A stretch of 32,000 bases of DNA from assembly GCA_016699205.1 (NCBI GenBank), contig CP064964.1:510001-542000 (forward strand). Direction: 5' to 3'. Numbering within the stretch: the first letter of the stretch is position 1; the number at the start of each line of letters is the position of its first letter. Source of the stretch: Candidatus Saccharimonadota bacterium. Lineage in GTDB: Bacteria > Patescibacteriota > Patescibacteriia > 2-12-FULL-60-25. The notes beneath the pieces are model-generated. The model did not search any database. It was not told the DNA's origin and saw only the letters and a program-made list of their open reading frames with translations. Shown here one piece after another: positions 16,981 to 24,455 of this stretch. A program made the translations under genes and the position numbers.

Positions 16981-19900
16981 TTCACGATAACAATTTCATC
17001 TTGGCCGACCGAGGCGATGGATGGATATTGGCTGTGCTGGATAAGAGGCGCTTCTGCAGTGAATGTTCCGCGCGTGACGACGCGTGCCGTATAGCGGATT
17101 TCATCAGCCCGCTTACCACAGTGCATGAAGGAGACCGCGCCGTTCAAAGATTCATACGGATACCAGTCGGTGGTGTATTCATACGGATTTCCGAGTACGG
17201 CCTGCCAGCCACCCGGGAGATTATCCGTGACTTGGTAGCAGCCATCGATGGCTTTGGCTGTGAATTCCGGGCGGAGCGTGATGGTGACGGTATCGCCTTC
17301 ACGCAAGTCGGAAAGGTTACGGTTGTCACTCGGGCGATAGGTGCGGCCGATGGCGACTTCTGGCTTGATTCCGGCTTGCCTGGCGTGCGGCGCAAGAAGC
17401 TGACTGTGACTGGTCCATCGACCGAGGTCACACGGAAATTGCGGGCTTCCGCTGCCGTAAGCGTCAGACGCTGTACCGGCTCGTCCTTGAAGAGGAGCGT
17501 TCTGTCGTCAGAACCTAGGGTGTAGGTGAGTTTAATCTCTCGATCAAGGACGGTAGGAAGGACGGACTTGATATAGCGAGCTTTGGCGAGCACCGGGAAA
17601 GCATCGCTGCTCCAGATGGAATCGACGTAGCGGCGGAGAGCAGCGGATTTTGGATGCGCGAGTGCTGCCGCGAGAGCGGCGGCGTCAGCGGAAGCCTCGA
17701 TGTTGTCTAGCTCCGCGTTGGAGACTTCGAGCCATGTGAGATTATCACGATCGACAGAGCGGGCTAGCAAGCTTTCAAGCAAACCGCGAGCGCGTTCACG
17801 GTCGCCAGCAGCGTTCAGGCCGCGGGCAATCGCCAATTGTTCACGCCAGGAGAGATCTTTAATGTCAGCGGCGGTTTGCAAGCTTGGCAAGACAGGTTCA
17901 CCGAGAGCTGCGAGACCAGAAAGTGACTGTAGTTGAATTTCACGGCTTGAGGATTTGTCATCGAGACGATTCCAGAGCGAGGCGGCCATGATTTTGGCGT
18001 CGATAAGCTCTGGAAGTGAAGCGGCAACCTCTGCTGTCAGCTCGATGTCCGTGCTGCCGTATGGCAAGAGATACATTTGTCCGTCTTCACTCTGATATTT
18101 GGCGGCGTCGGCGGACAACTCTTGATCTGTTGGCATCATGTCCAATTTTTCTCCATAGGTTTCGCGCAAGGTACGCAAGGCATAGCGCTGAGCGAGCTTG
18201 GCATCGGAACGGCTGGAGCCGGACCAGATCAGATCGTACAAATACGGGAGAAGCATGGCACGATTTTTGGCTGTAAGAATGATTTCTGCCTCCGCTTGTC
18301 CAAGTTCAAAGATCGCTGATCCTGGAGCTGCGTCGGCGGAGACAAACTCGTCTTTCAGGAAGCGCGACGAATCAATGGTGAGCTCACGTTCAACGGCATC
18401 ATTTCCTTGGGCTGACTCGACGCCGATCACGACCTTGTGACGACCAGGAACGAGCGTATCGATCGCGACATAGGACGGTTCAAGAGCCTTGCCAGTTACG
18501 CGTGCCGAGCGCAGACCAAGGGAAGGTGCATCAACGATAAAGGTCACGGCTGCGCCTTCTGGAAGACCAGCGCCATACGCACGGAGTTTGAGAACAGGCT
18601 TATCCGAGATGAGGAGGCGCGGAGGAAGAACCGCTTCCACGAATACCGGTTTGGAGACGTTCACGTCGAGGCGGCCGGAACCGGCTTCAAGCGCGCCGGA
18701 CAAACCGACGAGCTCCAAACGCCAGCCCGTAATATTGTCAGGAGCTTGGAAGGAGAAGCGACCTGTTCCATTGCTATCGGATTCGACGACTCCAAAGGCG
18801 GCTGTGTCTTTAAAGTTTTTGCGTGCCGATGATTGAAGCGCTCCGTTACCGCCGCCACCTTTTTCTGCACCTCCAAAACCGTCATAGATTTCCTCGTGAG
18901 AACGGGCCGAGAAGATGAAGCCGTCTTGGACAAAGCCATAGAGAGCATCAAGCGGACGCGCTGGATCATCGTATGAGAGAGCGAGAAGAGCTTTGTCGAC
19001 TGCCGAGTAGACGAATTTCAAATCACGAACTGGCTGACCTGTTGATTTGAGATTTGCCGTGACCGTGACATTCACATTTTCACCCGGCATGTAGCGTTCT
19101 TTATCGGTTTTGGCCGTGACTTCCAGCTCGCGATCCGCGGCGCGGAAGAACGCGGTGTTGCGTACCTCGACAAATCTTCCGTTCTGCCAAGTTACGCCGT
19201 AGACCTCAACGTTTGGGATCATGCCCATCTCCATACGGAATGGGTAGCGGTTGGAACTTAGAACTTTCACGTCTTTCAGGCCGCGGCTGGCGAGCAGGTA
19301 CAAGACACCCGGAGTTTTGGAGACATCCAGAGGATCGTTTCCAATGCGGAACTCGGCGGACAAATCTTGATCGAGCGGGTAGCCTATGACGGTTGCATCG
19401 CCCTTGGATTCTGGAAGCAGGGCGAGAGATGGCTCTTTGTTTTCATCCGGGGTGTAGCGCGCATAGGTACCGTAACCACCTGGCCAGACATAACGAATCT
19501 CACGCAGGAGGCGGCCCGCGTCATCGCGAGCTTCTGCGAGCAAGATATAGTCCTTAGCCGGATCCATCGTGAAACTATAGGAGGCTTGGCCGCGGGCGTC
19601 CGTCGTTACCGTAGCGCGGGTCGCTGCCTCATAACGCGCCTCGTAGCGGAATTGCTCAATGTTCTTCTTCTCGATTGTATCGTAGTAGAAGCCGGTAGAG
19701 ATACGCTCCCAGCGCCAAGGAATAACCGTGATGTCAGCCGGATGATTGGCCCAGACATTAGAGCGACCGGCGTCGTTAGCTTCAAATGCATTATGCCAAA
19801 GCTCGATGACTGCATTCGCCTGTCTATCCTTTACCGAGAGGTTCATGTTCATGCCGATTTCACTGCGGCGCACGTTCACACTCGCGCTGCCGCGAATATC

Positions 19901-22216
19901 CCCTTCTTCACCCGTGGTCGGACGAACTTCGATCGAGAGGCGGTCCTCCGGATAACAAGAGAGGTAGTAAGGGTCGCGCATCTGTGTCGTATCTGGAATG
20001 ACGGTGCCGCATGGCACGTTCGTCGGCTTCACTTCAAAACGGGCGGTGCCGTTGGCATCGGTTTCTAGATCGAGAACCGTGTCCCCGCTCGGGATACGGG
20101 CTGACAACTCAAGCTTCTGACGTGGTACAGGAGTGCCGTCAAAAAAACGGACGCGGACTGTTCCAGTCAGAGTTTCGCCAGAGTAGATCGACAAACGGTC
20201 TGGTACGACTTCAATACTGTAAGCCGGCTTGATGAACTCACGCACTTCAATGCTGCGCGAGGAAATCGTGCGGTTGTTGCGGCGCAATTCAATCGTGTAG
20301 TAGCCCTGCGAGAGCTCGTCCCAAGCGAGACGGCCTTCAAAGCGACCGGCAGCATCGACGTTAATGTCCTGCTCTTGATAGACTTTCTCGTTTCCGGTGC
20401 CAAAATCGATCCAGTAATTTGATTTGCGCAGGCGGATGCTCAAACGATCGGAAGGGGCGCGGCGGCTTTCACGATCTTGGGCGAGTCCGAAGAAGCGGAG
20501 CTCATCGCTTACGCGATAGAGAGGTCGATCGGCGTACAAGTAGCTGACGGTGTCAGAAATAAATTGATCCGGGTTACCAAAATCAAAGGCGTAGATGTCA
20601 TATGACTTGCGAAGCACCATGAGCGCGGAGATAGCCCCGTCGCCGACTTCCAAAATCGTAAATGGATAGACATCGCCAGGCTTGGTCGTCGTGCTCGTGA
20701 GTGCCGATGGGGTCTCAAGACGACCCAAACCGTTACCATCGGTGTTGGTGGTCTTGCCGTTCAAGCGGAGCGGCAAATTGGAGAGCGGACGATTGGTTGC
20801 CGGATTTACCGCCCAGACCAAAAGCGTATCTTTGTCGGCCTTGAGATAAGCAGCGGCGTTGTTGACCTGGATAAAGGTCCATGAGGCGCGGACGCTACGC
20901 GAGGCAACCGGATCAAGCCGGACGGCGTAGTAACCAGGTTCCTGGATCGGAGGGAGAGCGATGGATTTTTGATAGTCTTCGTCGATCAATTTGGCATCGG
21001 CTTTGAAAGCTTCTGTTTTGGCGGCCTGCTCAAAATCGGCGTAGCGCTGCTTCTCGGCGACAGTCCATGATGGGATCGTTAAGCGCTTTTCAAGAAGAGC
21101 CTTAGCTTCCTCGCGCGACAAGCGATATCCGGTGACGCGCATGCCCTGAAGGGCGGTCGATACGCCGTATGGGAGGCTGATGGAAATGTCTTTTCCTGGT
21201 TCAAACTGATAGCGCTCGCTTACTGGAACAAATACAACATCCGACGCATTGGCGAGTGATGGAGCATCGGTTTCAAAACGGAGACGGATATCATCATTCA
21301 ATGCCAGTTCGCTGCCGGCGATATTGAAACCTTTTTTCAGGACGACTTCGTAGCGCGTTCCATCGGCCAAGGGACGCTTGGGAACAAAGGTGAGCGTACG
21401 GCCTTGGGTGCGGAACTCGCCCTCGACAGAAGGAGAGATGGAAAAATGGGCGGCCGGGTCGACCCAACCGTCGCGGGAGAGCTTGAATTCGATACCGGTA
21501 TTCGTCGGGACGCGGCTAGCTCCGTCGCGCGGGATCGAAGAGAGAAGACGGAAGTCGTTTTTGGTCTGGAGAGCCCAGGAAAACTCGCGCGCTTGGGACT
21601 CGCCGTTCTCGGAGATAGCGGTGGCGATGGTGACGCGATAAATCTCACCCGGAGCGAAGGATTCTTCCGGAGTAACCTTGAAGGTGTTGTTGCCCGTCGA
21701 CTCGATAGCGACATCTACCGGAGGGACAATGCGCAGAGCTTGGCGAAGCTCGTCGGTTGTGACATCGACTTTGGAGGTGACGGTGAGCGCCGAGTTAGCA
21801 TCCATGCCTGCGGCGTCAGATTTGTCGGCCAAGACCGTGAAGGCATCAGCAGCGTGGGCGGCCGGGATCGATAAGGCGCGGACAATCGAGACTGGGCGGA
21901 CGCCAGAGAGGCCGCCTGGGCGATTGGTGACCATGATCGCCAAAATAAGGACGGCAGCAAGGCCGGCAACGGCGAATGTTGGCCAAACGGGCAGGCGGAA
22001 GCGCGTTTTAGCTGCTTTGGCTGGCGCTTCTTTTTTGGATGGGGCGGGCATAGCGAGTTTTTTGGTGGCTGAGACAAGAATTTGATCGCGAATCGAGGCT
22101 TTTTTAACGGGATCGAGCGTTTCTGATGGTTTTTTGGCCAAATCCGAAACCGCCCGTGACGTTTCTTGGAACGGACGGGACTCTAGGTCATGACGACGGT
22201 TAAGGGGTTCGGACAT
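16977..22216 (-). CDS. Alpha-2-macroglobulin family protein (about 1745 aa if repaired), N-terminally membrane-anchored, no thioester motif seen; frameshifted near 17355-17377
   Basis: RKNFKDTAAFGVVESDSNGTGRFSFQAPDNITGWRLELVGLS matches the A2M-domain signature. Many MG-like beta repeats are present. No CxEQ motif was found. Track ORF 17144..22216 ends in low-complexity junk. ORF 16977..17306 (extendable upstream to KPEVAIGRTYRPSDNRNLSDLREGDTVTITL...YQVTDNLPGGWQAV) is the genuine C-terminal domain in the +2 frame. Confidence 0.75.
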
Positions 22217-22814
22217 AAGTGGCTAGATATTTGGTGCGCAATCGACCCAAGGCGCGATAGACGAGAACGGATGCGTGATTGGGCGTGATGTCCATCGTCT
22301 TGGCAATTTCTTCCGGTTCCATGCCGGCAAAGAACTTGAGGTCGAGGATTTCCTGATCGCGCGGCGACATCGATTTTATTATTTCCACTATTTTGTCGCG
22401 CTCAAGGGAAAGCTCGGCATGCCAAGCAGGTTGATCGATCGGAGAGGGCGGGTCCCAGTCTTCCTCGACTTCTACATCGAGACGGACTTTGGCGCTGCGC
22501 CAGTGATCCGTGAGTGCGTTGGTGGCGGCGCGGAAGAGATAAGCGGAAAGCGAGACGCCTTGCCATTCGATACCAGGAAGATTCTCGATGAATTTCATGA
22601 AGACCTTGGAGACGAGGTCTTCTGCTGTTTCTTTGTGACCGCAGCGCTTTAACAGGAAACCGTAGACGCGATCTGCGTAGCGGTCATAAATAATGGCGAC
22701 GGCCTGCGGGTCAGATTTTGCGCGCATCAAAAGCGCCTCTTCCGATTGAACACTTTCATTGTGCGATGCGCTATCTGACATAACGATCCGTCTTGCGGAT
22801 GATGACGCCAGCAT
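22200..22814 (-). CDS. ECF-type sigma-70 family RNA polymerase sigma factor
   Basis: Region 2: IYDRYADRVYGFLLKRCGHKETAEDLVSKVFMKF. Region 4: SPRDQEILDLKFFAGMEPEEIAKTMDITPNHASVLVYRALGRLR. The start could instead be the ATG at 22781 (MSDSASH). The 3' end overlaps the A2M-like gene start by 17 nt. Confidence 0.8.
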   Translation of the reverse strand: MLASSSARRIVMSDSASHNESVQSEEALLMRAKSDPQAVAIIYDRYADRVYGFLLKRCGHKETAEDLVSKVFMKFIENLPGIEWQGVSLSAYLFRAATNALTDHWRSAKVRLDVEVEEDWDPPSPIDQPAWHAELSLERDKIVEIIKSMSPRDQEILDLKFFAGMEPEEIAKTMDITPNHASVLVYRALGRLRTKYLATYVRTP

Positions 22815-22839: not shown

Positions 22840-23109
22840 ATGATCCATCTCGACACCTTGAATCGGGGCGAACTGTTCAATGAAATTGCGGAATTGGCGC
22901 GGGCGCAGGGAGTGAACACAAAAGATGTCTGGTCGCAGCTCGTGAACGAAGTTTTGGATAGCCACTTGTCCGATGCGGAGCTTGATCCGGATAGCGATTT
23001 GATCGGACTCAAAACGACACTTACCGATATGTGGGAGGTCTACGAGTCAACGGCTGGAGAAGAGACATCTGACGCGATCGCCGAAGATCCGGAGAAGCCG
23101 CATGCGTAA
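22840..23109 (+). CDS. Hypothetical small acidic protein (89 aa)
   Basis: ATG-initiated ORF divergent from the sigma gene. No family recognised. Confidence 0.5.
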   Translation: MIHLDTLNRGELFNEIAELARAQGVNTKDVWSQLVNEVLDSHLSDAELDPDSDLIGLKTTLTDMWEVYESTAGEETSDAIAEDPEKPHA

Positions 23110-23122
23110 GCACACGCCCCAA

Positions 23123-23577
23123 CTGTACCGCCCCCTAGCCCCCTCCTGTGCTCAGGAGGGGGAATCGTATCCTTCGATACATTGTATTACGTGCTTAAGG
23201 TTTGTTTTTAGTTCTTCGTTTGTGAAACGAAGAACATGGATGTTGTGCGCTTGGAGAAATGCGTCGCGCTCCTTGTCGTAGCACTCTGTATCCCTTTCTT
23301 CATGGATTGGTCCATCGATCTCGATAGCGAGACGGGTCTTTGGGCAGTAGAAGTCCAAAACATAACGATCGACTCCGTATTGTCTCCGGAATTTCATTCC
23401 TCCTAAACGCCTGTCTCTGAGATATTCCCACAACGCTCTTTCGAATATCGTCGACTCTCTGCGAAGTTGCCGTCTTAGTTCTTTGTGAGAAGGATCGTTA
23501 TAGAGTTTTTGCATATTGTTTTGTTTTTAGAACATCCCCCTCCTGAGCACAGGAGGGGGAATGAGGGGGCGGTACAG
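23123..23577. mobile_element. DUF559 endonuclease cassette bounded by ~41-bp terminal inverted repeats (putative miniature selfish element)
   Basis: Left: ctgtaccgccccct-ag-ccccctcctgtgctcaggaggggga (23123-23163). The reverse complement of the right end (23535-23577) is ctgtaccgccccct-catt-ccccctcctgtgctcaggaggggga. Each repeat contains the hairpin ccccctcctg-tgc/agc-caggaggggg. Confidence 0.5.
23152..23514 (-). CDS. DUF559 (Vsr-like) endonuclease domain-containing protein
   Basis: TIFERALWEYLRDRRLGGMKFRRQYGVDRYVLDFYCPKTRLAIEIDGPIHE...YDKERDAFLQAHNIHVLRFTNEEL is the classical DUF559 pattern. The last 4 codons and the stop lie inside the left inverted repeat. Confidence 0.85.
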   Translation of the reverse strand: MQKLYNDPSHKELRRQLRRESTIFERALWEYLRDRRLGGMKFRRQYGVDRYVLDFYCPKTRLAIEIDGPIHEERDTECYDKERDAFLQAHNIHVLRFTNEELKTNLKHVIQCIEGYDSPS

Positions 23578-23580
23578 CTG

Positions 23581-23685
23581 TTAAATCAAGCACATCACAA
23601 CTGCAGCTCCTAACGCCATCGAGACGATGCTAATCGAGACGTAGATCGCCCATGGCTCTGGCGGATTGTCTTGCCAGAAGTTCAT
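23581..23685 (-). CDS. Putative 34-aa transmembrane micro-protein, translationally coupled (ATGA) to the upstream lipoprotein gene
   Basis: Hand translation: MNFWQDNPPEPWAIYVSISIVSMALGAAVVMCLI*. The ATG overlaps the TGA of 23682..24455. Not in the ORF track (under 60 aa). Confidence 0.35.
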   Translation of the reverse strand: MNFWQDNPPEPWAIYVSISIVSMALGAAVVMCLI

Positions 23686-24455
23686 GGGGAGATCAGGTCT
23701 GCGGGGCAATGCGCAAATGAGTCATGCGTCATTGCAAAGGCAACGGGTGCGAGGGCGCGGAGACGGGCTTCACGGATCATGAGAGCGTCTTCCGGGTGAT
23801 AGCCGGCCTCGGCGGCGAGTTCCGGCGGCGTGAAGATGTAGGAGCGGCCGCGAGAGACGATGTAGAGTGCGGACTCGGTTTGCACGAGTGTACCGTCGCG
23901 CAGGTTGAAGTCGGGATCGATGTCTCGGAATGATGACCACTCCGTGGTAACAAAGTCGTACCAGTCGATCCAGTCGGGATCACGGCCCCAAGAGCGCATG
24001 GCTTCCGGGGACGTAAGCCGTCGCTCCATCAAAGACCAGTTCAGGACGTAGAGATTCTCGTCTTCACCGGCGCCGTAGTAAGGAGCCCAGTCGAGGATAT
24101 CGGGGATCCAGAGCTCGTCTTCATCGCCAGGGAGACAGCGCTCTTCCTCGGCAGTCATGGGGATGGCGTCGCCGTCATCGAGACCGGCCTCTCCGAGGAG
24201 ATCGTCACCCGGAACAAAGACACGGCGGCCGCCGACCGCGACCATCCAGAGATCGCCGCGGTGGTCGGCGAGGAGGGTGCCGACGGGGTGGGTGCGGGGC
24301 CAGCCGTGGGAAGGATCATGGATTTCGAATGGCGTATGAAGAGTATGAGAGGCGTCGGGCATGAATCCCCCGTCTGCGGGCTGTGCGGACGCTCCATTCT
24401 CCAATACGCATGCATTCAGAAACAGGAACGCAATCAAACAGCCGATGGTGCGCAT
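23682..24455 (-). CDS. Hypothetical acidic lipoprotein (257 aa), very GC-rich
   Basis: MRTIGCLIAFLFLNAC is a signal peptide with a lipobox (L-N-A-C). AAGGAG lies 6 nt upstream of the ATG. No family recognised. Confidence 0.65.
   Translation of the reverse strand: MRTIGCLIAFLFLNACVLENGASAQPADGGFMPDASHTLHTPFEIHDPSHGWPRTHPVGTLLADHRGDLWMVAVGGRRVFVPGDDLLGEAGLDDGDAIPMTAEEERCLPGDEDELWIPDILDWAPYYGAGEDENLYVLNWSLMERRLTSPEAMRSWGRDPDWIDWYDFVTTEWSSFRDIDPDFNLRDGTLVQTESALYIVSRGRSYIFTPPELAAEAGYHPEDALMIREARLRALAPVAFAMTHDSFAHCPADLISP

Follow-up and report, generated by a model that had tools for sequence, protein, structure and literature searches.

A small nuclease gene lying between two near-identical inverted repeats raises the question of whether the repeats belong to that gene alone or to something more widely shared. 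Such a segment, roughly 455 bp long, is found in the 32,000-nucleotide stretch of the Candidatus Saccharimonadota bacterium contig CP064964.1 analysed here (positions 510,001 to 542,000; hereafter the window), where it contains a DUF559 gene of 120 amino acids. A preliminary description had taken the repeats for terminal inverted repeats (TIRs) of a minimal mobile or selfish cassette. We found that they are not private to this gene and belong to a dispersed class of units, similar to repetitive extragenic palindromic (REP) elements and known as BoxC, PIT or TM, most copies of which lie far from any DUF559 gene. Across many phyla the DUF559 family shows a tight and specific linkage to these repeats, and gene and repeats act as a discrete unit in unrelated contexts. 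Our favoured reading, held with about as much doubt as conviction, is that the segment is a DUF559 gene nested between inverted BoxC/PIT/TM units and one case of a widespread nuclease-repeat partnership, either homing-like or similar to that of REP doublets forming hairpins (REPINs) with REP-associated tyrosine transposases (RAYTs).

Reading of the sequence and a repeat finder agree on the inner arms at 23139-23163 and 23535-23559 (25 nt, 100% complementary) and on outer arms at 23120-23136 and 23564-23580 (17 nt, 94% complementary) containing the exact 14-mer CTGTACCGCCCCCT at 23123-23136 on the plus strand and 23564-23577 on the minus strand. The left arm (23123-23163) reads CTGTACCGCCCCCT-AG-CCCCCTCCTGTGCTCAGGAGGGGGA and the right arm (23535-23577) is its reverse complement with the spacer CATT in place of AG, which bears out the 14-nt plus 25-nt repeats described earlier around the gene. 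Each arm contains a hairpin of 10 G/C base pairs, CCCCCTCCTG-4 nt-CAGGAGGGGG, also as described, that on the right extending to 11 bp. The left inverted repeat (23120..23163, no strand assigned; repeat finder, folding and identity across relatives) is one BoxC/PIT/TM-type unit: its outer box at 23123-23136 is CTGTACCGCCCCCT, the spacer AG follows, and the hairpin CCCCCTCCTG-TGCT-CAGGAGGGGG occupies 23139-23162. On the minus strand this unit runs C-arm, loop, G-arm, loop, mirrored G-box. The right inverted repeat (23535..23580, no strand assigned; repeat finder, folding and triplex register) is the second unit, with the hairpin (T)CCCCCTCCTG-AGCA-CAGGAGGGGG(A) at 23535-23560, a second loop AATGA and the mirrored G-box GGGGGCGGT(ACAG) to 23577, the inverted repeat on this side reaching 23580. 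The sole open reading frame (ORF) between the arms is the DUF559 gene (23152..23514, minus strand), and its last codons and stop are indeed built from the left repeat: S-P-S and TGA (23152-23163) fall within the left hairpin, in its loop and its 3′ arm. At its start, an A-rich leader of 20 nt (23515..23534, minus strand, from reading of the sequence) separates the right hairpin from the ATG; the leader is too short for a promoter, and a scan found no promoter-like site upstream on the minus strand.

Stretches of 71 nt containing the hairpins gave predicted folds of about -24 to -31 kcal/mol (z -2.8 to -4.2), dominated by the hairpins, and a panhandle results when the whole element is folded as a single strand of DNA (z -8.8). 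The 25-mer and the 14-mer have no further copy in the window, for which shuffled sequences lead one to expect 0.00 and 0.06 matches, respectively. A number of simpler identities were rejected. The flanks (...CCCCAA/CTGTACC and GGTACAG/CTGTTA, the slash marking the element end) share no direct repeat and there is no target-site duplication, which together with the lack of any transposase domain in a Pfam scan of the protein rules out a classical TIR transposon or miniature inverted-repeat transposable element. A terminator scan called neither hairpin and no U-tract or T-run follows either of them, so that they are not intrinsic terminators, and covariance-model searches of the element against Rfam returned chance-level matches only, all with E above 2, arguing against a known RNA family.

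The evidence for a linkage between DUF559 genes and such repeats comes from a sample of 80 diverse metagenomic DUF559 loci encoding proteins 38-50% identical to that of the window (81 genes, 60 of them with complete flanks), with 98 ORFs from the same contigs as controls. A hairpin with one pyrimidine and one purine arm lay within 200 nt of 70 of the 81 DUF559 genes as against 9 of the 98 control ORFs (Fisher p 2e-27), and hairpins flanked both sides of 32 of the 60 genes with complete flanks as against 0 of the 98 controls (p 3e-17), a flanking rate that is a lower bound since the detector needs a stem of at least 7 bp and misses short units such as those of Picosynechococcus PCC 7002. Hairpin density was 4.83 per kb near DUF559 genes compared to 0.19 per kb elsewhere in the same contigs. 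The end of the nearest upstream hairpin lay at a median of 27 nt from the DUF559 start codon while the downstream one often overlapped the stop, giving rise to the C-terminal tails ...SPS or ...PPLTPP..GGE that are frequent in the family. The box-hairpin-gene-hairpin-box topology was found in the window clade and a Synechocystis plasmid, hairpin-box-gene-box-hairpin was the commonest arrangement elsewhere, and some DUF559 genes were situated between two complete repeat pairs in direct orientation. The same pairing of DUF559 gene and hairpin was found in Cyclobacterium isolates and cyanobacterial plasmids, and repeats at a distance on the contigs share their sequence type with the gene-adjacent ones.

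No other protein family was found to recur beside solo repeats. A GIY-YIG nuclease gene in the relative L002 has no such hairpins, and we rejected, for this one case tested, the idea that they are a general feature of small nuclease genes. Mobilisation of the repeats by RAYTs was likewise rejected, as about 200 loci yielded just two RAYT-like ORFs, both without such repeats at their flanks; the two, both IS200/Y1-type (L115 3123-3716, minus strand; L030 2648-3340, plus strand), are no more than about 1 kb away from a repeat unit. In open-access text we found no paper linking DUF559, ycjD or COG2852 to BoxC or triplex repeats, and the text of Holder et al. 2015 (PMC4666352) has no mention of ycjD, Vsr or any endonuclease. 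The repeat class and the protein family are both known already; the link between them appears to be undescribed.

The class itself has been described under the names BoxC, PIT elements and TM or TM_ECO (Bergler 1992; Hoyne and Maher 2000; Holder et al. 2015, PMC4666352), these repeats having been known since 1992 and BoxC having first been seen beside envM/fabI in E. coli. Its published architecture is C-arm, loop, G-arm, 3-nt loop and second G-arm, with 23 TM_ECO copies in MG1655, five as inverted pairs, and 3,610 copies in 262 proteobacterial genomes; the TM_ECO triplex forms in vitro, a quadruplex was excluded by nuclear magnetic resonance, TM_ECO sites were tied to elevated local genome rearrangement, and no transposase, integrase or mobility function had ever been found near the motifs (Holder et al. 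2015, PMC4666352). Earlier work, as summarised in that paper, reported no promoter or terminator activity for PIT elements. The outer box of our repeats is a mirror of the purine arm, with A usually becoming T or A, and among 418 half-units that differ in arm sequence the mirror alignment was the better in 273 and the direct alignment in 37. Such a mirrored box is the signature of an intrastrand purine-motif triplex, and each unit, being a pyrimidine-arm/purine-arm hairpin followed by a mirrored G-rich box, can on its sequence be predicted to fold the box back as a third strand. In the triplex register of the right unit, the arms measure 10, 10 and 9 nt, the loops 4 and 5 nt, and 8 of 9 triads are canonical; under the class II ITxF definition (three blocks of 6-15 nt, loops of 1-6 nt, at most one mismatched triad; Holder et al. 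2015, PMC4666352) the window unit is a predicted class II intrastrand triplex motif. It departs from the strict TM_ECO/BoxC consensus, CCCTCNCCC N3-6 GGGNGAGGG N3 GGGNGAGGG, in reading CCCCCTCCTG / CAGGAGGGGG / GGGGGCGGT, and judged by their architecture the window repeats are a differing sequence variant of the BoxC/PIT/TM class.

Scanning one genome per species for CCCCCTCCTG-N4-CAGGAGGGGG gave at least 120 loci, our own estimate of the chance expectation being about 0.5 matches. Carriers among the matches listed include the Bacteroidota Cyclobacterium, Rudanella, Pontibacter and Hymenobacter, gammaproteobacterial metagenome-assembled genomes (MAGs), several Patescibacteria, Nautiliaceae, Streptomyces and others, as well as an Armatimonadota MAG with more than 25 hairpin copies. 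Most of the listed copies have, on one side, an outer box of the window kind, which reads ACC-N-CCCCC, or GGGGG-N-GGT on the opposite strand, and many of those in Cyclobacterium are long palindromes, equivalent to two window arms joined without a gene. The Fimbriimonadaceae MAG CBFGUV01 (L006, L013, L018-L024, L035, L040, L043, L049 and others) has a longer composite repeat, present more than 25 times and built around a window-type hairpin, with conserved flanks such as GCTTCGCCGGACCACGGCACCTCCCCCTA ... GGATTCC...CTGCGAGCGAAGC; no DUF559 ORF was found near these in the roughly 200 kb sampled around them.

The protein has a clear family assignment. It matches Pfam DUF559 (PF04480) over residues 11-113, scoring 114.3 bits where the gathering threshold is 20.6 (E 3.2e-33), and a profile of 40 homologues searched against the PDB matched the uncharacterised Neisseria protein 3HRL (E 2e-31) and the homing endonuclease I-Bth0305I, whose catalytic domain is 3R3P (E 1e-5), which makes I-Bth0305I, by profile similarity, its closest characterised relative. 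Foldseek searches with an AlphaFold (AF2) model of the 120 residues (mean predicted local distance difference test score, pLDDT, 87.6) returned 3HRL and 3R3P as the best matches, with target-normalised TM-scores of 0.82 and 0.73, and below them the nuclease domains of PvuRts1I and AbaSI, apicomplexan mitoribosomal RAP-domain proteins, Vsr (1CW0, a weaker match) and TnsA; the modelled protein is thus predicted to have the Vsr-like PD-(D/E)XK fold. Residues E65, D67, H71 and D80 are invariant across the 40 homologues, in agreement with the EDxHD motif of the I-Bth0305I family, and are the predicted catalytic residues. The window gene (Pfam, structure and conservation) encodes a conserved and probably active nuclease of the Vsr/EDxHD type. 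It belongs to a family of 23,252 clusters at 50% identity with E ≤ 1e-3, or 10,224 with E ≤ 1e-10. Membership of a defence system was rejected, PADLOC having returned weak domain-level matches only, to DpdF and mREase_II. No cytosine methyltransferase gene adjoins the DUF559 gene. JGI labels the protein "very-short-patch-repair endonuclease", an annotation transfer that is no evidence for its function. The coding sequence (CDS) has a G+C content of 45% compared to 50-61% in neighbouring genes, and the ORF is free-standing between a gene of 89 amino acids and a small membrane-protein gene, outside any intron or intein. An internal ATG (M40; window 23392-23400) is preceded by AGGAGG, and several annotation pipelines call an 81-amino-acid product (P0121, P0123, P0124) or no gene. 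Pseudogenisation in the sister strains was rejected, since the ORF of 120 amino acids is intact in all of them and the short or missing calls reflect gene calling at this ATG.

Evidence of movement comes from other lineages. Cassettes sharing 77-91% DNA identity (L137, L160, L168, L146, L124, L189, L129, L141, L178, L166, L127) are similar over 330-460 bp only, that is, over the gene and its adjoining repeats, while their flanks are unrelated even by tblastx save for one orthologous pair; in an aligned subset (L137, L160, L168, L146, L124) the similarity starts at the outer box. In Synechocystis sp. B12 a box-hairpin-DUF559-hairpin-box cassette lies within a DUF1156 methylase gene, in a variable linker ahead of the conserved YLWTRTVKCPNP motif, and the DUF1156 homologues of Nostoc and Planktothrix are uninterrupted. 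In the PCC 7002 homologue this linker contains in-frame repeat-derived peptides, and a DUF559 gene that carries short units lies immediately upstream; on its plasmid pAQ6 (L210 2119-3312), about 95 residues of DUF1156 are repeat-derived (PQPSPPAPMNGGE..., SPQNGDLGAGE..., PQPSPPTPKFGGEE...). This subfamily of DUF559 is rare on mobile replicons, with matches in 2 of 50,697 phage and 33 of 72,556 plasmid records, on which ground we rejected phage or plasmid cargo as an explanation. At predicted programmed inversions, Milman et al. 2023 reported odds ratios of 14.3 for "DUF559 domain-containing protein" and 9.6 for "endonuclease domain-containing protein", an enrichment that fits genes lying between inverted repeats.

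The history of the cassette in the lineage of the window is different, and the claim of a mobile or selfish cassette is supported for the family, this lineage showing no sign that the cassette moved recently. We identified the cassette at the same site in eight relatives, comprising five near-identical strains (L204-L208, 96-98% DNA identity) and the diverged L001 and L002/L003 (79-81% protein identity). The shared order is the 89-amino-acid gene, the DUF559 gene, the small membrane-protein gene and then a lipoprotein-like gene of 257-280 amino acids. Among the three diverged lineages, the DUF559 gene has a synonymous divergence (dS) of 0.6-1.1, a ratio of nonsynonymous to synonymous divergence (dN/dS) of 0.10-0.13 and a CDS identity of 77-86%, the left repeat (L001 and L002 compared to the window) is 98-100% identical, the right repeat 88-98%, and just outside CTGTACC identity drops to about 50%. 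These values indicate that protein and repeats are both under strong constraint and that the element is sharp-ended. The cassette of the window lineage is old, fixed, apparently single-copy and vertically inherited, with selection keeping both protein and repeats, and by analogy it looks like the persistent, vertically inherited state of RAYTs rather than an active invader. A search for empty sites had also been suggested: the syntenic and far more distant L034, a Candidatus Uhrbacteria MAG whose lipoprotein is only 37% identical to that of the window, has neither the DUF559 gene nor the 89-amino-acid gene and retains only the right half-unit, with a hairpin identical at 24 of 24 positions including the loop. 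In strain GCA_020051655.1 (L208 903-960), the 17-nt outer box at the right element end is tandemly doubled (GAGGGGGCGGTACAGC twice), and in other strains the C5/G5 runs of the right hairpin differ by a single base in length or by C-to-T substitutions.

E. coli offers a second view of the linkage. Its ycjD is a DUF559 gene that ends in ...SPSP with its stop inside a degenerate repeat unit; 168 nt farther downstream comes TM_ECO no. 9, inverted relative to that unit. Both TM_ECO no. 9 and the original BoxC lie beside ycjD. The repeat region adjoining ycjD occurs at 15 places in the median E. coli genome. Where the ycjD locus is present (n = 37), genomes have 12-26 such places (median 17) compared to 1-17 (median 5) in those without it (n = 23), a difference with p 3e-9 across 60 evenly spaced genomes in a comparison that ignores phylogeny. 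The ycjD cassette and the eefRABCD operon have been described as alternative occupants of the fabI-sapF gap (PMC12817139), and in strains with the eef operon the similarity to K-12 ends about 40 nt before TM_ECO no. 9. Between the ycjD unit and TM_ECO no. 9 of K-12 (L209 2242-2395) is a doubled, diverged fragment of the ycjD 3′ end (ggagacggtgctggagaatatt...ctgaaccg), which looks to be left over from an older copy of the cassette or from recombination.

How might such a partnership operate? We propose that the nuclease would recognise the repeat once it has folded into a hairpin or an intrastrand triplex, while the DNA is transiently single-stranded, and would nick or cut there; repair or recombination at the breaks could then copy, rearrange or delete repeats, and occasionally the gene itself might be copied into a repeat pair. 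A wider and more tentative proposal, which we think rather less probable than the partnership itself, is that DUF559 proteins are the missing enzyme partners of BoxC/PIT/TM repeats throughout bacteria, acting as structure-specific nucleases that would generate, maintain and reshuffle repeat populations. A number of observations weigh against the partnership. The link seen between protein and repeats is one of gene position, and a PD-(D/E)XK hydrolase is by itself incapable of strand transfer. The two opposite topologies mean that there is no single element-end geometry. Only 3 of about 125 hairpins among the matches listed adjoin a DUF559 ORF, and most sampled repeat copies have no DUF559 gene within 8 kb. 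The window lineage shows no polymorphism in copy number or insertion, we saw none in presence or orientation among its close relatives, and the 32-kb window has no repeat copy besides these two. The E. coli correlation is confounded by phylogroup, and strains without ycjD still hold some repeats. Finally, no stable triplex was found in vivo (Holder et al. 2015, PMC4666352).

We considered the possibility that the repeats serve expression control only, as cis-acting RNA or DNA structures that insulate a possibly toxic nuclease gene and keep it poorly translated, the protein itself ignoring them. The purine arm AGGAGG and the G-box resemble Shine-Dalgarno sequences and the pyrimidine arm an anti-Shine-Dalgarno sequence, the ends of the mRNA could pair, and the panhandle fold of the whole element is in keeping with this. 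So are the hairpin just 20 nt from an ATG that has no promoter-like site upstream, the G-box directly before the ATG in other loci, and the purine arm 6-12 nt before the start of a sigma gene of the extracytoplasmic function (ECF) type in L034, L041 and L115. We judge it unlikely, because it leaves unexplained the solo and paired repeats of identical type far from any DUF559 gene, the mirror relation of outer box and purine arm, and the joint movement of cassettes with their repeats; the hairpins also have no U-tract, and PIT elements showed neither promoter nor terminator activity in the earlier work summarised by Holder et al. (PMC4666352). A passive association, in which recombinogenic and independently spreading repeats gather in dispensable, rearrangement-prone gaps that house small accessory genes, would account for the elevated local rearrangement at TM_ECO sites (Holder et al. 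2015, PMC4666352), for the bias of solo repeats, as of REPs, to the 3′ ends of genes, and for the variability of the fabI-sapF gap in E. coli. It seems to us just as unlikely, given that of the control ORFs on the DUF559 contigs only 9% are flanked, none of them on both sides, that the GIY-YIG gene of a relative is free of repeats, that no other gene family recurs beside them, and that the repeats abut or overlap the start and stop codons of DUF559 genes and travel with the gene.

Less probable again, and improbable in our view, is an action on RNA, in which DUF559 proteins would work in the manner of the related RAP domains, known from FASTK-family and mitoribosomal proteins, and bind or cut hairpins in their own or neighbouring transcripts. 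In its favour, RAP-domain proteins from apicomplexan mitoribosomes are among the structural neighbours, FASTKD4, which is Vsr-like, works on mRNA (PMC11879112), and both hairpins would fall in a read-through transcript; set against this, the closest characterised sequence relatives, I-Bth0305I and Vsr, are DNA enzymes, and purine-motif triplexes do not form in RNA according to literature summarised by Holder et al. (PMC4666352). Strand asymmetry of wobble pairs (G-U compared to A-C) does not discriminate, as stems are almost always perfect and imperfect ones too few to compare. Least probable of all, and to us barely credible, is an invertible switch in which site-specific or homologous inversion between the repeats turns the gene on or off. 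It draws on the enrichment of DUF559 products at predicted programmed inversions (Milman et al. 2023), but gene orientation is identical in all eight related loci, no recombinase gene is nearby, and solo repeats and the direct-repeat-flanked loci L136 and L170 would go unexplained.

The partnership that we favour resembles a number of known systems without coinciding with any of them. With BoxC/PIT/TM_ECO the repeats share the succession of C-rich arm, loop, G-rich arm, short loop and mirrored G-rich box, and their occurrence as dispersed intergenic units, often in inverted pairs and with no known function. They differ in their arm, CCCCCTCCTG in place of the CCCTCNCCC of the TM_ECO consensus, in bracketing a nuclease gene where published work reports no associated enzyme, and in a DUF559-bracketing distribution that spans phyla well past Proteobacteria and Cyanobacteria. 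As in REPIN-RAYT systems (REPtrons), the gene of a DNA-cleaving enzyme is flanked by inverted hairpin repeats that in other genomes are also dispersed as singlets and inverted pairs (the 32 kb of the window have no further copy), and in the window lineage that gene is apparently single-copy, vertically inherited and under purifying selection; unlike them, the enzyme is a PD-(D/E)XK (Vsr/EDxHD) hydrolase and not a Y1/HUH (IS200-like) transposase, and the repeats bear a mirrored third-strand box. The catalytic fold and motif, the small selfish-looking cassette and the insertion into a conserved gene in Synechocystis B12 recall I-Bth0305I (3R3P) and free-standing homing endonucleases. The window gene is however outside any intron or intein, its putative target is a repeat and not a unique gene, its protein of only 120 amino acids is without the long N-terminal DNA-binding region of I-Bth0305I, and in this lineage it is conserved (dN/dS about 0.1) and not decaying. 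Vsr is of the same superfamily and its fold was recovered weakly (1CW0), but the DUF559 gene has no adjoining cytosine methyltransferase gene and belongs to the Pfam family DUF559, not Vsr.

BoxC/PIT/TM repeats, which adopt triplexes in vitro and are markers of unstable sites in the genome, have been without an assigned enzyme, function or mode of spread. Their linkage to DUF559 merges this orphan repeat class and a very large uncharacterised protein family into one testable hypothesis. If it holds true, the pair would represent a second, RAYT-independent REPIN-like system and a nuclease-based counterpart to the REPIN-RAYT paradigm, possibly with a structure-specific DNA nuclease at its core, and would account for a repeat class that has been an orphan for 30 years as well as for an orphan protein family with over 10,000 clusters at 50% identity.

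A number of neighbouring features were also noted. The gene to the left of the cassette (window 22840-23109, plus strand) encodes the acidic protein of 89 amino acids, which has no family match and falls in a cluster of 8 members, and that to the right (window 23581-23709, minus strand), downstream of the lipoprotein-like gene, encodes a hydrophobic protein of 42 amino acids (32-34 in relatives), also without a family match. An ECF-type sigma-70 gene starts 6-12 nt past the purine arm CAGGAGGGGG in three different genomes (L034 354-377, L041 2103-2126 and L115 2702-2725), a spacing at which the arm could be a hairpin-sequestered Shine-Dalgarno sequence. The homologous sigma gene of the window (22200-22814, minus strand) is no longer beside a repeat because the 89-amino-acid gene and the DUF559 cassette intervene. 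It is followed by the gene of an alpha-2-macroglobulin-like protein of 1,690 amino acids (window 17144-22216, minus strand; MG2, A2M and Big_5 matches in relatives), which overlaps its last 17 nt, and in L204 the two are called as one gene of 1,934 amino acids. In L001 (4420-7213), a thioredoxin/DsbD block together with a helix-turn-helix gene lies between the 89-amino-acid gene and the sigma gene, indicating that the neighbourhood of the cassette has been rearranged between relatives.

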